NCBI GenBank assembly: GCA_964463155.1
Contig: CAYXAY010000022.1
Coordinates: 1 to 9,798, forward strand
Reading direction: 5' to 3'
Length of the DNA: 9,798 nt
Origin: an uncultured archaeon
GTDB taxonomy: Archaea > Iainarchaeota > Iainarchaeia > Iainarchaeales > CSSED10-239
The notes below the pieces were generated by a model. The model saw nothing but the letters and a program-made list of their open reading frames with translations. It was not told the DNA's origin and searched no databases. Numbering within the stretch: position 1 is the stretch's first letter; each line of letters opens with the position of its first letter. This document shows positions 966 to 9,798 of the stretch, piece by piece. The position numbers and the translations under genes were made by a program.

Positions 966-2213
966 TTATATAAAATCTCTCCAAACTAAATAGTATTTTA
1001 TTAAATTAATATTTTCTTTATTTGCATCAAAGTTTATTATTGATCCATCTCTTATAATTAAATATTTTTTGTATAATTTAAGTTTCTGAACTTGCTTTAA
1101 TTTAAAGTTATTAATGTCTTGTAAGGTGATTTGATTTCTGTATTTTACTTCAACACCAATTTTTTTAGAAGACTTACTATCGTGCCAAATAAAATCTATT
1201 TCATTTACGCCTCTATTATCCCAAAAATATTCTGCATTTATTTGAAAAGCAACATCTGTTTCTATAAGTTTGCTTTCATTAGGAGAATCATCTATAAAAT
1301 AAATTAATGTTGTACAAAAGGGATAAAATTTTTTAGATTTTTGTTCGGTTTTTCTTGCATTATTTGAAAAATGATATATCTTTCTTATTAGACCACTATT
1401 ACACAAATACGCAAGGTATTTAGTAATATCTTTCCTATTTGTGCCCAATTCTTTTGATAGGTCAGTATTATTTATTATTTGCCCTGGATCTTTTGAAATT
1501 ATTCTAAATATACTGTATAGTATTTCTGTATTTACATTTTTTACATATTTTTCAGAATCTTCATATATTACTTTTTTAATGATATTTAACATATATTGTT
1601 TTGTATCTATAGAATAATCTAATGCTAATTCAGGATATTGTCTTTTTAAGTAACTTTTATAGTGATTTAAAAAAACATCATCTATTTTATTATCTATTAC
1701 TGTTGCATTATTTGAAAAAAACAAATATTCTTTGAAATTTAATGGACCAATAAAATATTCAAATATTCTCCCCGCAAGAGATTCTTTTTTACTTGATCTT
1801 AAAGTAGACCCACTAACCACAATCTTTATATTTATATAATTATCATAAATTATCTTTATTTTTTCTTGCCAATTGTCAAGTTTTTGAATCTCATCAAAAA
1901 ACAAATAAACTTTTCCTCCATTTAATGATTTATTTCTAATAATTTCATATTCTTTAATTAGTTTAAATATATCTTCTTTAAAATCATCAAATGAAAAATA
2001 TAATATATCTTCTGGAGCTACATTATTATCTATCAAGTTTTTTATTAATTGCTTAATCAAAACAGATTTACCAACTCTTCTTGGACCTTCAATAGATAAT
2101 ATAAACTTATTTTCGATTGCGTTTTCAAGAATCGTGTAAATATCTCTTTTTATTGGATACTCTTTTAATTCTCCTCGCCATTGTTTGTTTTGAAAAAATA
2201 TCATTTCTTTCAT
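966..2213 (-). CDS. AAA+ ATPase of the AAA_14 + DUF4143 type (COG1373-like), with a central wHTH-like segment and a C-terminal PD-(D/E)xK-like motif.
   Basis: 415-aa ORF with ATG start and TAA stop. Walker A is GPRRVGKS (DNA 2064..2087) and Walker B-like is VYLFFDEIQ. The segment TDLSKELGTNRKDITKYLAYLCNSGLIRKI looks like a wHTH. The C-terminal NEIDFIWHD...IGVEVKY fits a D...E-x-K nuclease-fold signature. As far as I recall, DUF4143 belongs to the PD-(D/E)xK clan. Confidence 0.85.
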   Translation of the reverse strand: MKEMIFFQNKQWRGELKEYPIKRDIYTILENAIENKFILSIEGPRRVGKSVLIKQLIKNLIDNNVAPEDILYFSFDDFKEDIFKLIKEYEIIRNKSLNGGKVYLFFDEIQKLDNWQEKIKIIYDNYINIKIVVSGSTLRSSKKESLAGRIFEYFIGPLNFKEYLFFSNNATVIDNKIDDVFLNHYKSYLKRQYPELALDYSIDTKQYMLNIIKKVIYEDSEKYVKNVNTEILYSIFRIISKDPGQIINNTDLSKELGTNRKDITKYLAYLCNSGLIRKIYHFSNNARKTEQKSKKFYPFCTTLIYFIDDSPNESKLIETDVAFQINAEYFWDNRGVNEIDFIWHDSKSSKKIGVEVKYRNQITLQDINNFKLKQVQKLKLYKKYLIIRDGSIINFDANKENINLIKYYLVWRDFI

Positions 2214-2352: not shown

Positions 2353-2910
2353 TTATTTCTTTTTTGTTTGATATTTTATTTGTTGCTTCTTTGCTTTCTC
2401 ACACAATTTTATTATCTTCTTGTCTGTAAATGGATTAATTGCACGTATACCGGGGATCTTGTTGAAGTCTTTTGTGTTTTCTGTATAGATTAGATGAATG
2501 TTGTTATCAAGCATTGTTTGTGCTAAGAGGGCATCAAAGAAATGAACGCCTGTTAAATAGGATAGATCTACGGCTTGCATAATTGTATCAGAAGTATAGG
2601 ACAAAATGGTAAATAAATTTGAAATATTTTTTAAACGATTGTTTAATTCTGTCGGATTATCAAAACATTTTAATTTATTTTTGGTAACATTTACAAATTC
2701 AACAAGATTTTGAATACTTATATATCCATATTTTAGATTGCCTTCTGAAAGTAAATTAAAATAATTTCGTATCTTTTCTGACTGGTCTTTGGTGTTTACA
2801 TTTGTATAAACTGTTACAAATATATTTGTGTCTATTAGATAAGATTCTTGAGAATCGAAATTCAATTTATCATAATTTAAATATAAATTTTCTGTAGTCA
2901 TTTGCGTCAC
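2353..2910 (-). CDS. vapC: PIN-domain protein, VapC-like toxin, with a Lys-rich C-terminal tail.
   Basis: 185-aa ORF. PIN acidic signature: YLIDTNIF near the N-terminus, FFDALLAQTML, and IYTENTKDF near the C-terminus. The listed start at 2910 is GTG; an ATG at 2901 (MTTENLY...) is an equally plausible start. It lies 3 nt downstream of the RHH gene on the same strand. Confidence 0.75.
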   Translation of the reverse strand: MTQMTTENLYLNYDKLNFDSQESYLIDTNIFVTVYTNVNTKDQSEKIRNYFNLLSEGNLKYGYISIQNLVEFVNVTKNKLKCFDNPTELNNRLKNISNLFTILSYTSDTIMQAVDLSYLTGVHFFDALLAQTMLDNNIHLIYTENTKDFNKIPGIRAINPFTDKKIIKLCEKAKKQQIKYQTKKK

Positions 2911-2913
2911 ATT

Positions 2914-3153
2914 TTATCTTTCATATATCTCTGCTCTAGTCTTAGGCATTTTCCCGTTTTTTCCGACCTTTAAAGGATTAGCCATCAAATATTTTAAATG
3001 CTTAATTGCGTCTAATCTTTTATTTTCTTTTTCAGATATGGTTTCAACAATTGTTTTACTTATAGCGTTTTTCCTGTCACCATACTTGGCTTTTGCCATT
3101 TCTCTTAAAAGCTTTTCAGATTTGTCATCCATTGATATTGTTATTACTCCCAT
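2914..3153 (-). CDS. vapB: Small ribbon-helix-helix (CopG/VapB-like) antitoxin candidate.
   Basis: 79-aa ORF with ATG start. The N-terminal GVITISMDDKSEKLLREMAK fits a beta-strand plus helix RHH start. It lies immediately upstream of the PIN gene. GAGGTG lies 7 nt upstream of the ATG. Confidence 0.65.
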   Translation of the reverse strand: MGVITISMDDKSEKLLREMAKAKYGDRKNAISKTIVETISEKENKRLDAIKHLKYLMANPLKVGKNGKMPKTRAEIYER

Positions 3154-5271: not shown

Positions 5272-5978
5272 ATGGGAAAAAACAAAAATTTTAATAAGAA
5301 GGTAATAGCAATTGTCACACAAATAGTCAATGGAATGGCAAACAAGAAAAAAGGTTCTTTTTTTATAATCACAAAATCATTTCTGACAAATATGAAAGAC
5401 TTTATCCTGATCTTTTTTCTAAACAAAATGTAAGCATATTCAAAAAGGAAACACAAACTCTTCTTATTGCTCTTCTAGAGGTTGATGGGGCAATTGTTAT
5501 TGATAACCACGGCCACATAGTTGACTATGGCGTCAAAGTAAAAAAAACAAAAATACTTTTCGGACATGGAACAAGACATTCTGCTGCTCGTGGAATCTCC
5601 TGTGTAAAAAATGTTCTGTCAATTATATCTTCTGAAGAAGATGGCAAAGTCAGATTATTTAGAAACGGAGAACAGGTTGCAGAGATAAACCCAAAGACTG
5701 GAAAATCCAAGAAATTCTTTGAAAGAATTGGAGAACTATTTTCAAAGTCTGAGCTTCATGTTGCTACTGCTGGCGGTGTTGCCTCACTATTGCTTCGCTT
5801 GAATCCTTTGCTTTCAGGAATTGTCTTTACTGGTTCTTGGGTCGTCACAAAATATGGAATAGTAAGCTTGAAATATTTCTTACATACAGGAAAGCTTACT
5901 ATTGAAAAGAAACATAAAGAAATCAAAAGAAAAATAAAAAAAATACAGAAAAAACATGGCCAGTCAACAAAACAATAG
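5272..5978 (+). pseudogene. DAC (DisA_N) domain protein, a diadenylate cyclase-like c-di-AMP synthase candidate. It is interrupted by a -1 frame change around 5358-5380 (pseudogene or homopolymer sequencing error).
   Basis: My own translation. Frame 1 runs from ATG 5272: MGKNKNFNKKVIAIVTQIVNGMANKKKGSFFIITKS... and stops at 5431. The frame starting at positions divisible by 3 is open 5298..5978 with no ATG/GTG/TTG before 5790, which is why the track shows only 5790..5978. It reads ...ISDKYERLYPDLFSKQNVSIFKKETQTLLIALLEVDGAIVIDNHGHIVDYGVKVKKTKILFGHGTRHSAARGISCVKNVLSIISSEEDGKVRLFRNGEQVAEI.... The DGA motif, the GTRHxAA motif and the SEE(D/T)G segment are DAC-domain hallmarks. The C-terminus has a hydrophobic stretch (VATAGGVASLLLRLNPLLSGIVFTGSWVV) and a Lys-rich tail. 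Confidence 0.75.
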
Positions 5979-6390
5979 CACAACGGAAATTTCAAAAGGA
6001 ATAGTCCAGTCATTTATAAGAATCGCAATGAGAGTTATTCTATTTGGAATTATAATTCCAGGAATAATCTACATTGGCATTAGATTCTTAGAAATTGCTT
6101 TTGGATTTGGCTGGAAAGAACAATTAACTTACCAGTATATGGGTTATATCTATACTGTTGGTTATGCTTTGTTTTTGGTGTATATGGCAATAAGAAACCA
6201 ACTAAGCACAACCTTGTATTATTCAATAGGTTGGATTTTTGGTTTGTTATTAATGTTTAGGCTTGGAATATTTACTACCAGAATGTTTTTTGGTTTTTTG
6301 TTTGTGCCAGTGATATTTGTAATCATTAAGATCTTGTATCTAATTTTTAAAAAAAAGGAAAAAAAAGTTAAAAGAAATTATAGCCCTTAG
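5956..6390 (+). CDS. Small integral membrane protein (about 4 TM helices), function unknown.
   Basis: 144-aa ORF with ATG start. It has four long hydrophobic segments and a KKKEKKVKR tail. It overlaps the DAC gene 3' end by 23 nt, and converges with the repeat-protein gene with a 23-nt overlap. Confidence 0.5.
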   Translation: MASQQNNSTTEISKGIVQSFIRIAMRVILFGIIIPGIIYIGIRFLEIAFGFGWKEQLTYQYMGYIYTVGYALFLVYMAIRNQLSTTLYYSIGWIFGLLLMFRLGIFTTRMFFGFLFVPVIFVIIKILYLIFKKKEKKVKRNYSP

Positions 6391-8326
6391 AGTGAAGTCT
6401 TACATATCTTTGCATTCTTCTTTGGCTTACTCCAAGTTCTGCTAGTTCTTTGTAACCATATCCTGCTTTTATCAATTGCTCTGTGTTATAGCCAGCTTTA
6501 TGTAGTTCTTTTGCAGAAAAGCCAAGTGGCTTTAGTTCTTTAGCTGAATATCTAATCACTCTTAATTGTCTTGCATTTTGTCCTAATTTCCAAACATCTT
6601 TTGCAGAATAACCAGCAAAATATAGTTCTCTTGGTAAAAATCCAACAGCATACAGTTCCTTTGCAGAATAGCCAGCATCTCTTAAAGACGCTGGTGAAAA
6701 ACCAAGTGGCTTTAGGTCTTTAGCAGGATATGCTTTTCTTAAATCATATGCACTATAGCCAGCGTCTCTCATTTCTTTTGCTGTGTAGCCGGCTTTTGCA
6801 AGTTCTTCAACATCAATATCTAGGTCATTCAGTTCTTTTGCTGAATAGCCTGCATCTTTAATCATTTTTAATTCAAAACCCGCAAAATAAAGTTCTCTTG
6901 CAGTAAACCCAAGATTATGGAATTGTCTTGCTGAATAGCCGATACCAAGTAGTTCTTTTGCTGAATAGCCCGCGTCTCTTAATTCATAAAGGTTATAGCC
7001 TGCAAGATGAATCTCCACAGCAGAAAATCCGGCTTTTTTAAGTTCTTTAATTGTACAGCCTTTTGAGATAAATTCTGGTAGTTCACAACCAATAAGTCTT
7101 ATTTCATTTAATGGACAGCCGGCATCCATCAATTGTGAGCAAAAAAGTCCTGCTTTTGATAATTCTTTTGTAGTATAGCCTGCAATATAAAGTTCTGCGG
7201 GAGAATAACCAAAATCCAATAGTTCCTTTGCAGAATAATTAAGATATCTTAGTTCTTCTAGATGGAATTCTTCTTTTTTTTCCTTTTCTGTTAATAGTTC
7301 CCTTAAATCAAATATTTCTTTTAGTTTGTAGCCTGCTTCTTTTAGTTCTTTAATTGAGTATCCTGCTTGGTACATGTCTTTTGCAGAAATGCCAGCAATC
7401 CTAAATTGGTTTGCAGTAACTCCGACTGGTGCTAATTCTTTTATTCTGAATCCTTCTTTTAAAAGGTCTGCAATTGTTATGCCGTCGTCCAACAATTCCT
7501 GTATATTTATTTTTCTTCTGTCAATTAATTCTAAAAGAGTGTGTCCTGCAAGCAATAGTTCGCCTATGGTGTATACTTTTTTTAGGTCTTCTAAAGTATA
7601 TCCTGCATCAAGCAATTGCCTTGCCTTGTAGCCTGCAATCTTTAATTTCTTTACTGGAAAATTGTGTTTGTATAGTTCCTTTGCTGGATATTGGGCATAA
7701 GAAACAACATCTTCGTTAAATTTTGTGTTTAACAGTTCCTTAACAGAATAACCTGTATCTCTTAGTTCCTTAGCAGAATAGCCTGCTCTCTTAAGCTCAA
7801 TCAAAGAAAATTTTGCTTTTTTTAATTCCATTGCTGAAAAGCCTAGAGTAAATAAATATTTTGAACCAAATTTCATTTTCTTTAGTCTTGTAACAGTATA
7901 TTTTGCTTTTTTTAATTTAAAGTGATTGTAACCTAATTGTAATAATTTCTTTGCTGGCGTTTTCTTTTTTAGAAGTTCTGAAATAGTTAATTTCTTCTTT
8001 ATTATTTTCTTTTTTACTGGTTTTGATTTTATTGTTTTTTTCTTTGGTTTAATTAAAGAAAAGCCAAGTTCTTTTAGTTCTGGATTAGTAAAGCCCGCTG
8101 TTTTTAAATCCTTAATTGTGTATTTCATGCCTTCAAAGATTGTGTGGTTTGCCTTTACTTTTTTTAAGTCTTTAGCATATCTTTCTAAACTTATTTTTTT
8201 CTTTTTTAGATGAGAAATATCTATTGGAGAAATTATAAATCTCTTTGGAGAATTAAGCTGTTTATTTAATAATTCAACTACTTCTTTCTTTTTAAGTGTT
8301 TGAGTTATCTTTTTCATATATTTCAC
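6368..8326 (-). CDS. Large tandem-repeat protein: a Lys-rich N-terminal region followed by about 50 in-register decapeptide repeats (x-x-A-G-Y/F-S-A-K-E-L). No family recognised.
   Basis: 652-aa uninterrupted ORF in a region of 30-nt DNA periodicity. There is no signal peptide or TM segment. The listed start at 8326 is GTG, and the ATG at 8317 (MKKITQ...) is a likely alternative. Example run: RDAGYSAKEL LGIGYSARQF HNLGFTAREL YFAGFELKMI KDAGYSAKEL. Confidence 0.8.
   Translation of the reverse strand: MKYMKKITQTLKKKEVVELLNKQLNSPKRFIISPIDISHLKKKKISLERYAKDLKKVKANHTIFEGMKYTIKDLKTAGFTNPELKELGFSLIKPKKKTIKSKPVKKKIIKKKLTISELLKKKTPAKKLLQLGYNHFKLKKAKYTVTRLKKMKFGSKYLFTLGFSAMELKKAKFSLIELKRAGYSAKELRDTGYSVKELLNTKFNEDVVSYAQYPAKELYKHNFPVKKLKIAGYKARQLLDAGYTLEDLKKVYTIGELLLAGHTLLELIDRRKINIQELLDDGITIADLLKEGFRIKELAPVGVTANQFRIAGISAKDMYQAGYSIKELKEAGYKLKEIFDLRELLTEKEKKEEFHLEELRYLNYSAKELLDFGYSPAELYIAGYTTKELSKAGLFCSQLMDAGCPLNEIRLIGCELPEFISKGCTIKELKKAGFSAVEIHLAGYNLYELRDAGYSAKELLGIGYSARQFHNLGFTARELYFAGFELKMIKDAGYSAKELNDLDIDVEELAKAGYTAKEMRDAGYSAYDLRKAYPAKDLKPLGFSPASLRDAGYSAKELYAVGFLPRELYFAGYSAKDVWKLGQNARQLRVIRYSAKELKPLGFSAKELHKAGYNTEQLIKAGYGYKELAELGVSQRRMQRYVRLHSKGYNFF
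6413..7942 (-). repeat. 30-nt periodic coding repeat array (the decapeptide repeats), with some near-identical DNA units.
   Basis: For example, the 20-mer agttcttttgctgaatagcc occurs exactly at 6831..6850 and 6951..6970 (120 nt apart, or 4 units). Related versions occur at about 6654, 6927, 7221 and 7765. The boundaries are approximate. Confidence 0.8.
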
Positions 8327-8857: not shown

Positions 8858-9067
8858 TTATTTTATATAAATAGTTGATGCTTTTTTTAATCTGGTCATT
8901 ATGGCTTTGCCTAACTTGTCTTCGTCAATTCCTTGAGCAATAATTATATCTATTTTGTCTTTATCAAATTCTCTAAAATAAGAAAATAGTTTTTGTGCAT
9001 AGATTTTTGTATCAGAATCTAAATACCTAACATTATTTTCTTTTAAATCAAAACTATAAGAAAGCAT
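8858..9067 (-). CDS. sua5: C-terminal (Sua5-domain) fragment of the threonylcarbamoyl-AMP synthase gene, displaced into another frame.
   Basis: The 69-aa ORF ...YAQKLFSYFREFDKDKIDIIIAQGIDEDKLGKAIMTRLKKAS matches the conserved Sua5 C-terminal end (L..LR.fD....D.I.......GlG.AimnRL.KAa). This frame is open upstream to 9124, so it overlaps the end of the main ORF. Confidence 0.7.
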   Translation of the reverse strand: MLSYSFDLKENNVRYLDSDTKIYAQKLFSYFREFDKDKIDIIIAQGIDEDKLGKAIMTRLKKASTIYIK

Positions 9068-9759
9068 ACCTTTTTTTTCTTTGGATTTTTCTTCTTTATT
9101 AATTCTATTTCTCTCAAGAAATTTCTATTATAGTCAATTAAGATAACTTTTGCTTTTGGGGAATAATGTGTGTATTTCATTCCTGGGGCTTTTGGTTTAT
9201 CTCCATTTTTAGAATTTAAATTAGAAAATTCAACTTCTCCAATAACTTCTTCAATATCTTCTTTAGTAATGTATCCTGGTCGTAATATTGTTGAAGTATT
9301 AGAAGTAAAGTCAATAACTGTTGACTCAAGGTCAACTTTACAACATCCCACATCAATGATCATTGAAATCTTGTTATTAAGATCTTCAATGACATGTTTT
9401 GCTGTTGTTGGGCTTGGTTTTCCTGAAATATTTGCACTTGGTGCAACAATTGGAACTTTTGATTGTTTTATTAATTCTAAAGCAATTTTGTTGTTAGGCA
9501 TTCTTATTGCTACACTGTCCAGTCCTGCTGTAACAATGTCTGAAACAACTTTTTTCTTTTTAAGAACTATTGTTAAAGGTCCAGGCCAAAACTTTTTTGT
9601 TAATTTTTGCGCAGATTTTGGGAAATCTTTTGCAAGTTTTTTAATCTGAGAGATATCAGAAATGTGAGCAATTAATGGATTATCTTGTGGTCTACCTTTA
9701 ACTTTAAATATTTCTGAAACTGCCAAAGGATTAAAAGCATTTGCCCCAAGGCCATAAAC
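9043..9759 (-). CDS. sua5: L-threonylcarbamoyladenylate synthase (Sua5/YrdC/TsaC family), main body. The 5' end is truncated by a fold-back and the 3' end is frameshifted.
   Basis: Reads VYGLGANAFNPLAVSEIFKVKGRPQDNPLIAH...WPGPLTIVL...IRMP...VAPSANISGKPSPTTA...PGMKYTHYSP. The KGRP..NPLI and SAN.SG motifs are family hallmarks. The track start at 9726 is an internal TTG. The frame is open to 9771, but upstream of VYGLG it reads EKKQ instead of the expected PTET. Confidence 0.85.
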   Translation of the reverse strand, partial: VYGLGANAFNPLAVSEIFKVKGRPQDNPLIAHISDISQIKKLAKDFPKSAQKLTKKFWPGPLTIVLKKKKVVSDIVTAGLDSVAIRMPNNKIALELIKQSKVPIVAPSANISGKPSPTTAKHVIEDLNNKISMIIDVGCCKVDLESTVIDFTSNTSTILRPGYITKEDIEEVIGEVEFSNLNSKNGDKPKAPGMKYTHYSPKAKVILIDYNRNFLREIELIKKKNPKKKKVCFLIVLI

Positions 9760-9798
9760 TTGTTTCTTTTCCTACAGAAACGGTTTATGGCCTTGGGG
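9744..9798. repeat. Perfect 16-bp inverted repeat (ccccaaggccataaac at 9744..9759 and gtttatggccttgggg at 9783..9798) around a 23-nt spacer, reaching the last base of the window.
   Basis: Read directly. The plus strand at 9759..9798 encodes LVSFPTETVYGLG, the missing Sua5 N-terminal motif, but in the opposite orientation to the gene body. Confidence 0.9.

Follow-up and report, generated by a model that had tools for sequence, protein, structure and literature searches.

The four cysteines of a stand-alone archaeal decapeptide-repeat protein, which lie together in neighboring repeats, are probably explained by a locally repacked solenoid core and one recent Tyr-to-Cys change, rather than by a metal or redox site. 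The gene was analyzed within a 9,798-nucleotide stretch of DNA from an uncultured archaeon (the window), and its features are listed in Table 1. The maximal open reading frame (ORF), at 6368..8326 on the minus strand, encodes 652 aa and opens with GTG at 8326; residue numbering throughout follows this frame. The downstream ATG is favored because all orthologues begin with MKKITQ, and it is probably the true start. Exact-sequence look-ups of the protein with both start codons returned no record, and neither Rfam families nor tRNAs were detected in the window.

Table 1. Features of the decapeptide-repeat gene and its cysteine block (window positions; residues numbered in the 652-aa frame).
Feature	Position	Strand	Residues or codon	Remarks
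Decapeptide-repeat gene, stand-alone	6368..8317	(-)	649 aa	Probable start ATG at 8315..8317
N-terminal module, archaeal-clade-specific	8042..8317	(-)	~aa 4-95	From orthologue alignment
Lys-rich linker	7955..8041	(-)	~aa 96-124	Read from sequence
First decapeptide array	7307..7954	(-)	~aa 125-340	AF2: 6-residue helices with 4-residue loops between
Second decapeptide array, holding the Cys block	6407..7258	(-)	~aa 357-640	pLDDT 93-98, full-length model
Four Cys-bearing units	7037..7156	(-)	aa 391-430	KAGLFCSQLM, DAGCPLNEIR, LIGCELPEFI, SKGCTIKELK
C396	7139..7141	(-)	TGC	At G+3, usually Ala; kept in all orthologues, TGC/TGT synonymous variation
C404	7115..7117	(-)	TGT	At G+1; kept in all orthologues
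C414	7085..7087	(-)	TGT	At G+1; kept in all orthologues
C424	7055..7057	(-)	TGT	At G+1; window-specific; Tyr (TAT) in L001, L058, L002, L056

The ORF matches the Pfam Decapeptide family PF25296, known from the Legionella type IVB secretion protein DotG/IcmE, with 512.5 bits (E = 1.2e-157; cut-off 45) over 12 stretches. Against the NCBIfam DotG equivalog NF033900 it scored 391.7 bits, below the cut-off of 750 and with the match confined to the repeat portion of that model, and the C-terminal TrbI/VirB10 domain PF03743, which is present in nearly all top homologues, was absent from its Pfam matches. The archaeal protein is a stand-alone PF25296 member and not a DotG. It has about 50 decapeptide repeats overall with the consensus x-A-G-[Y/F]-[S/T]-A-x-E-L-x, and 38 canonical G-x5-[LIMVF] units were counted, mostly 10 aa apart; the repeat motif described for DotG/IcmE is [KR]-x-A-G-[FY]-[STND]-x-x-x-[LI] (bioRxiv 10.1101/2023.03.22.533729). 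A pentapeptide-repeat beta-helix was considered and rejected, as the Pentapeptide_4 model PF13599 scored 17.5 bits (cut-off 38) and DSSP of both AF2 models assigned helices only. Recent duplication of a Cys-bearing unit was likewise rejected, since the block contains no 30-nt DNA repeat and the three units differ throughout. Tandem Repeats Finder detected hardly any 30-nt periodicity in the gene, and the units, as judged from their DNA, are not recent duplicates.

Translation of the ORF revealed exactly four Cys residues (C396, C404, C414, and C424) at the four codons originally predicted to be the only ones, in a C-x7-C-x9-C-x9-C arrangement with the predicted codon spacings of 24, 30, and 30 nt. 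Three of them (C404, C414, and C424) directly follow the Gly in consecutive 10-residue units, again as predicted. The accompanying assumption that Tyr or Phe is near-invariant at this position did not hold: it occupies 28 of the 38 canonical units, the others having Cys (three), Ile (two), Val (two), His, Leu, and Gln (one each). Across the family, only two residues are commoner than Cys at this G+1 position, where it occupies 6-13% of units (722/5584 in DotG-type matches and 343/5602 in a set of 147 diverse representatives of 50% clusters). Nevertheless, the clustering of the four Cys in the archaeal protein is non-random: four residues placed at random would fall within 29 aa with P = 2.8e-4, and three random units of 38 would be consecutive with P = 0.004. 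Of the 272 other family proteins compared, not one has three GC units in succession, and only two have a pair in succession, one being the Mallomonas protein P0217.

Orthologues were located via synteny with the neighboring Sua5 gene. L001 and L002 are 72 and 69% identical to the window protein, respectively; a metagenome scan and an N-terminal-module search added L056 and L057 as further copies of the L002 lineage and L058/P0273 as belonging to the L001 lineage. Conservation was judged on three lineages, that of the window included, and the collections searched held no more. L001 and L002 both retain C396, C404, and C414 and have Tyr (TAT) at position 424. The trio persists through ~30% sequence divergence. 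Across the orthologues, the fraction of invariant positions is 0.66 for the whole protein and 0.73 for the Cys block, and 31 of the 38 units do not vary at +1 (fraction 0.82); a second +1 site reads Gln, Cys, and Tyr across the three lineages. Within this alignment, the three shared Cys are conserved no better than background. Searches with the Cys-block segment (aa 340-450) gave five candidates and no match in a word-indexed set of 5.8 billion proteins, and 1421 family matches without an orthologue (best identity 45%) in an exhaustive search of cluster representatives. A scan of species-representative genomes with the repeat protein itself returned no relative, and only the Sua5 route led to orthologues.

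The window-specific TGT codon of C424 is one A-to-G transition away from the TAT of the orthologues. That the new Cys adjoins the existing GC pair speaks against the repacked-core reading, the chance being about 1 in 20 to 1 in 30 if any aromatic +1 site is possible. The same codon could arise from a base-call or assembly error, with TAT read as TGT and the true protein having three Cys like its relatives. The assembly does have faults: Sua5 is broken by a frameshift at an A-run near 9072-9080, the diadenylate cyclase (DAC) gene by another at a homopolymer run at about 5325-5391, and a fold-back inverted repeat lies at the end of the window, together indicating assembly problems. However, none of the visible faults, which comprise indels and a chimeric end, is a substitution, and the ~30% residue difference between the window and its relatives makes an extra substitution unremarkable. 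We consider such an error exceedingly unlikely.

The preferred reading, a repacked core, draws on the predicted structure of the repeats. In the AF2 models, a unit consists of a 6-residue helix (G+3..G+8) and a 4-residue loop (G-1..G+2), and the Cys block (pLDDT 94-97) shows no irregularity; a separate model of a 120-aa segment from the second array reached a pLDDT of 95.5 and a pTM of 0.81. Foldseek comparison of the full-length and 120-aa models with the PDB gave TM-scores of at most 0.25 and, for the segment, E >1, revealing no solved analogue; the (HhH)2 repeats of topoisomerase V were rejected as an analogue because the matches were weak and not significant. Each unit is predicted to comprise a single short helix and a turn that contains the Gly. 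The G+1 residue would, with Ala(-1), Ala(+3), and Leu(+6), form a buried hydrophobic contact joining adjacent short helices. Both this burial and the absence of a cavity or ligand site are inferred from sequence, the former from general helix-capping rules (Gly as C-cap, a capping box of the form S/T-x-x-E, and a hydrophobic staple).

All four Cys, C396 at +3 and the others at +1, would thereby occupy buried positions. The Cys units combine a small +1 residue with Leu, Leu, or Ile at +3, and have Ile at -1 and Phe at +6, so that the usual large +1/small +3 pattern would be swapped for a small Cys with a large Leu or Ile. The estimated summed volume of the core residues (-1, +1, +3, and +6) is 530-632 cubic angstroms in the Cys units, compared to 586 +/- 46 for all 38 units; because bulky residues compensate and the volume remains within the normal range, no cavity is expected there. 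Across the family, a bulky +3 residue is found in 30% of units with Cys at +1 versus 18% of those with Tyr or Phe. The Cys would accordingly serve as small hydrophobic residues that pack a locally rearranged stretch of the solenoid core. Three are putatively inherited within a small archaeal clade, and the fourth probably arose recently from Tyr by one transition (TAT to TGT), a kind of exchange that the family appears to tolerate widely.

The original prediction of a localized functional Cys site was thus borne out in its non-random clustering and in the retention of three Cys, whereas the four-Cys ladder is not conserved and no metal or redox indication was found. A narrower proposal, in which the C396/C404/C414 trio is a real thiol site in or at the edge of the solenoid (metal, cluster, or redox sensor) and C424 a ligand gained later, appears unlikely. 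The clustering (P ~3e-4), the trio common to three lineages with a synonymous change in the first Cys codon, and the location of the block in a region conserved above average (0.73-0.85 vs 0.66) are consistent with such a site. On the other hand, one Cys of the four is unconserved, the trio, as judged from three lineages, is conserved at the background level, and the bulky compensating residues speak against a cavity. A classical Cys ligand motif (CxxC, CxC, or Cx2Cx2Cx3C) is absent from the ORF, no conserved His or Asp was found nearby as an auxiliary ligand, and the ORF matches no metal-binding Pfam family. The gene neighbors are Sua5, DAC, a Na+/H+ exchanger, a pilin-like gene, and two small membrane proteins, among which there are no metal- or Fe-S-related genes and no dot/icm genes of the type IVB secretion system (T4BSS). 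The host is a low-GC DPANN-type archaeon.

A family precedent for a thiol site is provided by the DotG-type Cys quartets, which occupy the +1 and +3 positions of units n and n+2: the pattern [AG]CxC-x15-19-CxC occurs at these repeat positions in 119 proteins, and GC-x22-GC pairs occur 409 times in 138 proteins. Because these motifs are strongly conserved in DotG-type relatives, thiol chemistry at +1/+3 may be used elsewhere in the family; among the literature search results examined, no paper took up DotG repeat cysteines or disulfides. Mutual information between neighboring units revealed couplings that include +3(n) with +1(n+2) and +7(n) with +1(n+3). The former, which is the relation between C396 and C414, is the strongest at a two-unit distance and would favor a thiol site, although the signal is confounded. 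Mutual information was rejected as a contact proxy, since it reflects how canonical and irregular stretches differ, together with the conserved DotG super-motifs. In a bolder version, which we regard as distinctly unlikely, the trio and C424 would form a buried thiol cluster (metal or thiol/disulfide switch) tuning rod stiffness or partner binding, as an archaeal cytoplasmic counterpart of the DotG CxC...CxC and GC-x22-GC motifs.

The same DotG-type pairs and quartets, placed at equal repeat positions, could be taken to suggest one or two disulfide staples between neighboring repeats of the archaeal protein, for instance C396-C414 or C404-C424. The repeat region of DotG is periplasmic (bioRxiv 10.1101/2023.03.22.533729), and Cys pairs there plausibly form staples. 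In contrast, the N-terminus of the archaeal protein, MKKITQTLKKKEVVELLNKQ, is polar and without a hydrophobic segment, and a hydropathy scan found no signal peptide or transmembrane segment (the 19-residue maximum of 1.08 being internal), so that the protein is expected, from its sequence, to be cytoplasmic and in a reducing location. The spacing of 8, 10, and 10 aa also departs from the 24 or 17-21 aa of the DotG motifs, and three conserved Cys are an odd number for pairing. Disulfide staples are highly unlikely in our assessment. The N-terminal module is present in three copies in the L002/L056 orthologue, and a search with it yielded as its sole outside match P0273, a split L001-type orthologue. 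AF2 models it poorly (pLDDT <50 for residues 27-46, 56-68, and 90-106), and the Lys-rich linker, also of low pLDDT, is the least conserved part of the protein (invariant fraction 0.35). The net charge of the protein is about +47 (124 K+R vs 77 D+E).

If the repacked core is the true explanation, the Cys run itself is of little consequence; a thiol site, if real, would give this type of repeat its first assigned functional site. The DotG-type repeat is found in addition as a stand-alone and very basic protein in DPANN-type archaea, where its gene neighborhood is conserved, and Cys recurs family-wide at two core positions in stereotyped motifs. As the repeat has no experimental structure and Foldseek found no solved analogue, a short, well-behaved archaeal array could be convenient for solving the fold, which would also inform work on the unresolved collar of the Legionella Dot/Icm machine.

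Among known systems, Cys-ladder beta-solenoids such as the antifreeze protein of Tenebrio molitor are secreted beta-helices whose consecutive short repeats have in-register Cys, with a disulfide pair in every coil stapling the solenoid; the archaeal protein differs from them in having Cys in only 4 of ~50 units, helical repeats, and no signal peptide. Pentapeptide repeat proteins, which form a right-handed quadrilateral beta-helix, likewise consist of short tandem repeats in a solenoid, and DotG repeats were historically annotated as such, whereas the archaeal model contains only short helices and no strands. Eukaryotic stand-alone proteins (Durusdinium trenchii CAK9098782.1, Polykrikos, and Mallomonas) also carry PF25296 repeats without a TrbI domain, but they do not share the N-terminal module, show a repeat identity of at most ~35-40%, and have no three-unit Cys run. 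Compared to DotG/IcmE, the archaeal protein lacks the TrbI/VirB10 domain, the N-terminal membrane anchor, and T4BSS neighbors, comes from an archaeal host, is strongly basic, falls below the NCBIfam DotG cut-off, and has its Cys in three consecutive units instead of GC-x22-GC pairs and CxC...CxC quartets. It resembles DotG/IcmE in the strong HMM match, in the equal 10-residue unit and consensus, and in the recurrence of Cys as the alternative to Tyr or Phe after Gly. The two are also alike in being predicted as helical rather than as a beta-helix, which agrees with the AlphaFold remark on the DotG repeats, whose fold is experimentally unresolved (bioRxiv 10.1101/2023.03.22.533729).

The longest ORF of the window (9798 bases, G+C 30%) encodes the repeat protein, and its translation contained exactly four cysteines at the originally noted positions, with spacings of 24, 30, and 30 nt (see the table below). 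The ATG codon listed there is probably the start, because all orthologues begin with MKKITQ. When the protein was laid out on its Gly residues (G), the cysteines fell, as originally noted, in four successive units, KAGLFCSQLM, DAGCPLNEIR, LIGCELPEFI, and SKGCTIKELK, the first at G+3 and the remaining three at G+1. The accompanying claim that Tyr or Phe is near-invariant after Gly proved incorrect, as these residues occupy the position in 28 of 38 units. The clustering is beyond chance expectation: four random positions span ≤29 aa with P = 2.8e-4, and three units drawn at random from 38 stand in succession with P = 0.004. This statistical improbability favors the proposal that the cysteines form a functional site. 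Recent duplication of repeat units was considered and rejected, the units being old at the DNA level.

Coordinates of the Cys codons and other features of the window
Feature	Codon	Position	Strand	Basis
C396	TGC	7139..7141	minus	translation
C404	TGT	7115..7117	minus	translation
C414	TGT	7085..7087	minus	translation
C424	TGT	7055..7057	minus	translation
Repeat-protein ORF, 652 aa		6368..8326	minus	
Probable repeat-protein start	ATG	8315..8317	minus	orthologues
Repeat protein from probable start		6368..8317	minus	
AAA_14/DUF4143 ATPase gene		966..2213	minus	
PIN-domain gene and 79-aa ORF		2353..3153	minus	
DAC gene		about 5272..5978	plus	
Break in DAC		near 5325..5391		
Sua5 gene		8858..9798	minus	
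Break in Sua5		near 9070..9097		
A-run agaaaaaaaagg		about 9072..9080		
Inverted repeat ccccaaggccataaac / gtttatggccttgggg		9744..9759 / 9783..9798		
Segment encoding Sua5 residues 29-42		9756..9797	plus	

The repeat protein matched Pfam PF25296, "Decapeptide repeat region" (E = 1.2e-157), and its top sequence matches lay in the central repeats of DotG/IcmE, which belongs to the core of the type IVB secretion system in Legionella. Assignment as DotG was rejected: the Pfam matches included no TrbI/VirB10 domain, the protein has no hydrophobic segment, no dot/icm genes lie near its gene, and its score against the NCBIfam DotG model (391.7 bits) is below the cut-off of 750. The protein adds a new stand-alone archaeal member to an already known and large repeat family, for which 1421 cluster representatives (50% identity) were retrieved at E <= 0.001. 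Stand-alone PF25296 proteins that lack a TrbI domain were also observed in dinoflagellates (P0221, Durusdinium trenchii; P0243, Polykrikos kofoidii) and a chrysophyte (P0217, Mallomonas marina), one of them annotated as 'IcmE/DotG protein'. The window protein is strongly basic (K+R 124 vs D+E 77), with a net charge of about +47, and it might conceivably bind nucleic acid.

No orthologue emerged from direct searches that used either the repeat protein or its Cys block; two syntenic orthologous loci were reached via the neighboring Sua5 (threonylcarbamoyl-AMP synthase) gene, namely L001 from an archaeon MAG (671-aa ORF, 72% identity to the window protein) and L002 from an uncultured archaeon (827 aa, 69% identity). 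Three further loci, L056, L057, and L058, are extra copies of these two lineages. Conservation of the Cys block held for C396, C404, and C414, which all orthologues retain (with synonymous TGC/TGT variation at C396), but failed for C424, which is Tyr in all of them. The orthologous codon, TAT, is one transition away from TGT, and the fourth Cys would represent a recent Tyr-to-Cys change in the window lineage. A base-call error at C424, to which two homopolymer frameshifts and an apparent fold-back end in the window lend some credence, seems very improbable. Tyr/Cys exchange at +1 appears ordinary in this clade, because the three lineages have Q, C, and Y at another +1 site; four of the seven alignment columns with Cys in any lineage are variable.

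The proposed four-Cys ladder, whether read as a metal or cluster site, a redox site, or a disulfide, appears doubtful: presence of the trio in all three lineages speaks for it, whereas restriction of the fourth rung to the window lineage speaks against it. Invariant columns make up 66% of the alignment and 73% of the Cys block, and 31 of 38 +1 positions are invariant; judged from the alignment, conservation of the trio is no greater than background and not exceptional, which also weighs against a site. A functional thiol trio of C396, C404, and C414 is unlikely in our assessment. The ~95-aa N-terminal module (LTKKEIIEKLNKQLNSP...FIISPID...YAKDLKKVNANKTIY...), which has no Pfam match, occurs in triplicate in L002 (2265..4748) and L056 (4298..6781), suggesting an independent domain. 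In L058 (4064..6078; L001-type, 99.2% nt identity), the Lys-rich (A-rich) linker contains a frameshift that yields ORFs of 110 and 527 aa.

AlphaFold2 gave a mean pLDDT of 84 (93-98 in the second array) and a pTM of 0.47 for the full-length protein, and 95.5 and 0.81 for a 120-aa segment around the Cys block. In both models, every decapeptide consisted of a helix of six residues (G+3 to G+8) and then a loop of four, and the Cys block showed no irregularity (pLDDT 94-97). Papers up to 2025 describe the DotG repeat region as unresolved, and Foldseek with both models retrieved no similar solved structure (TM-scores <= 0.25). Weak, non-significant matches of the segment model included the (HhH)2 repeats of topoisomerase V.

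The unit motif A-G-[Y/F]-[S/T]-x-x-E-L fits textbook helix capping, with Gly as C-cap and S/T-x-x-E as capping box, and with a hydrophobic residue ahead of the N-cap packing against the Leu that lies four residues inside the helix; from this match we infer that positions -1, +1, +3, and +6 are buried. The canonical core set is Ala, Tyr/Phe, Ala, and Leu, and the Cys units carry A-L-C-L, A-C-L-I, I-C-L-F, and K-C-I-L, so that the +3 residue (Leu, Leu, or Ile), together with Ile at -1 and Phe at +6, would make up for the small Cys. Summed side-chain volumes of the Cys units are normal (530-632 cubic angstroms; 38-unit average 586 +/- 46), and a bulky +3 residue is commoner family-wide with Cys at +1 (30%) than with Y/F (18%). 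Given the inferred burial, this argues for a core that is repacked but filled, rather than a cofactor cavity. A locally repacked core with a recent Tyr-to-Cys change is the account we consider probable. A disulfide staple is decidedly improbable, and the block comes with neither a classical ligand motif nor an export signal nor a metal-related gene context, a further point against a functional site.

Neighboring the repeat-protein gene are Sua5 and genes for two small membrane proteins, a diadenylate cyclase (DAC), a Na+/H+ exchanger, and an archaeal pilin-like protein. The nearest Sua5 relatives belong to uncultured archaea, Nanoarchaeota, and similar groups, which points to a DPANN-type archaeon. 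A PIN-domain protein (185 aa) adjoins a 79-aa ORF in what looks like a toxin-antitoxin pair, beside an AAA_14/DUF4143 ATPase gene; the syntenic regions of L001 and L002 lack all three. The Sua5 reading frame is interrupted at an A-run, dividing the gene between two frames and reflecting either a sequencing/assembly indel or a real pseudogene; the L001 orthologue is intact (337 aa). The DAC gene carries a frameshift close to a run of A6 or T7, leaving an open downstream frame of 217 codons without a start codon; its counterparts are a PF02457 DAC in L058 and an intact 230-aa protein in L001. At its end the window carries a perfect inverted repeat of 16 nt, where part of Sua5 is encoded in the orientation opposite to the gene, and the terminus looks like a fold-back chimera at the contig end.

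Among the residues that follow Gly, Cys ranked third in 120 DotG-type matches (13% of units) and again in 147 diverse cluster representatives (6%); as a frequent alternative at +1 it counts against a dedicated site. Two units with Cys at G+1 in a row occurred in only 2 of the 272 other family proteins compared and three in succession in none, and the arrangement in the window protein is unusual within the family. We regard the Cys run as a minor variant within the decapeptide repeat family. The DotG-type proteins carry GC-x22-GC (409 occurrences in 138 proteins) and [AG]CxC-x15-19-CxC (119 proteins), motifs that are highly conserved in P0001-P0120 and correspond to residues 166-187, 270/294, 380/404, 445/469, and 523/547 of L. 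pneumophila DotG (P0051). None of the literature search results examined discussed them; periplasmic disulfides in the DotG collar region are a plausible role. These stereotyped motifs occupy the same +1/+3 positions as the cysteines of the window protein, a likeness that favors a functional site.
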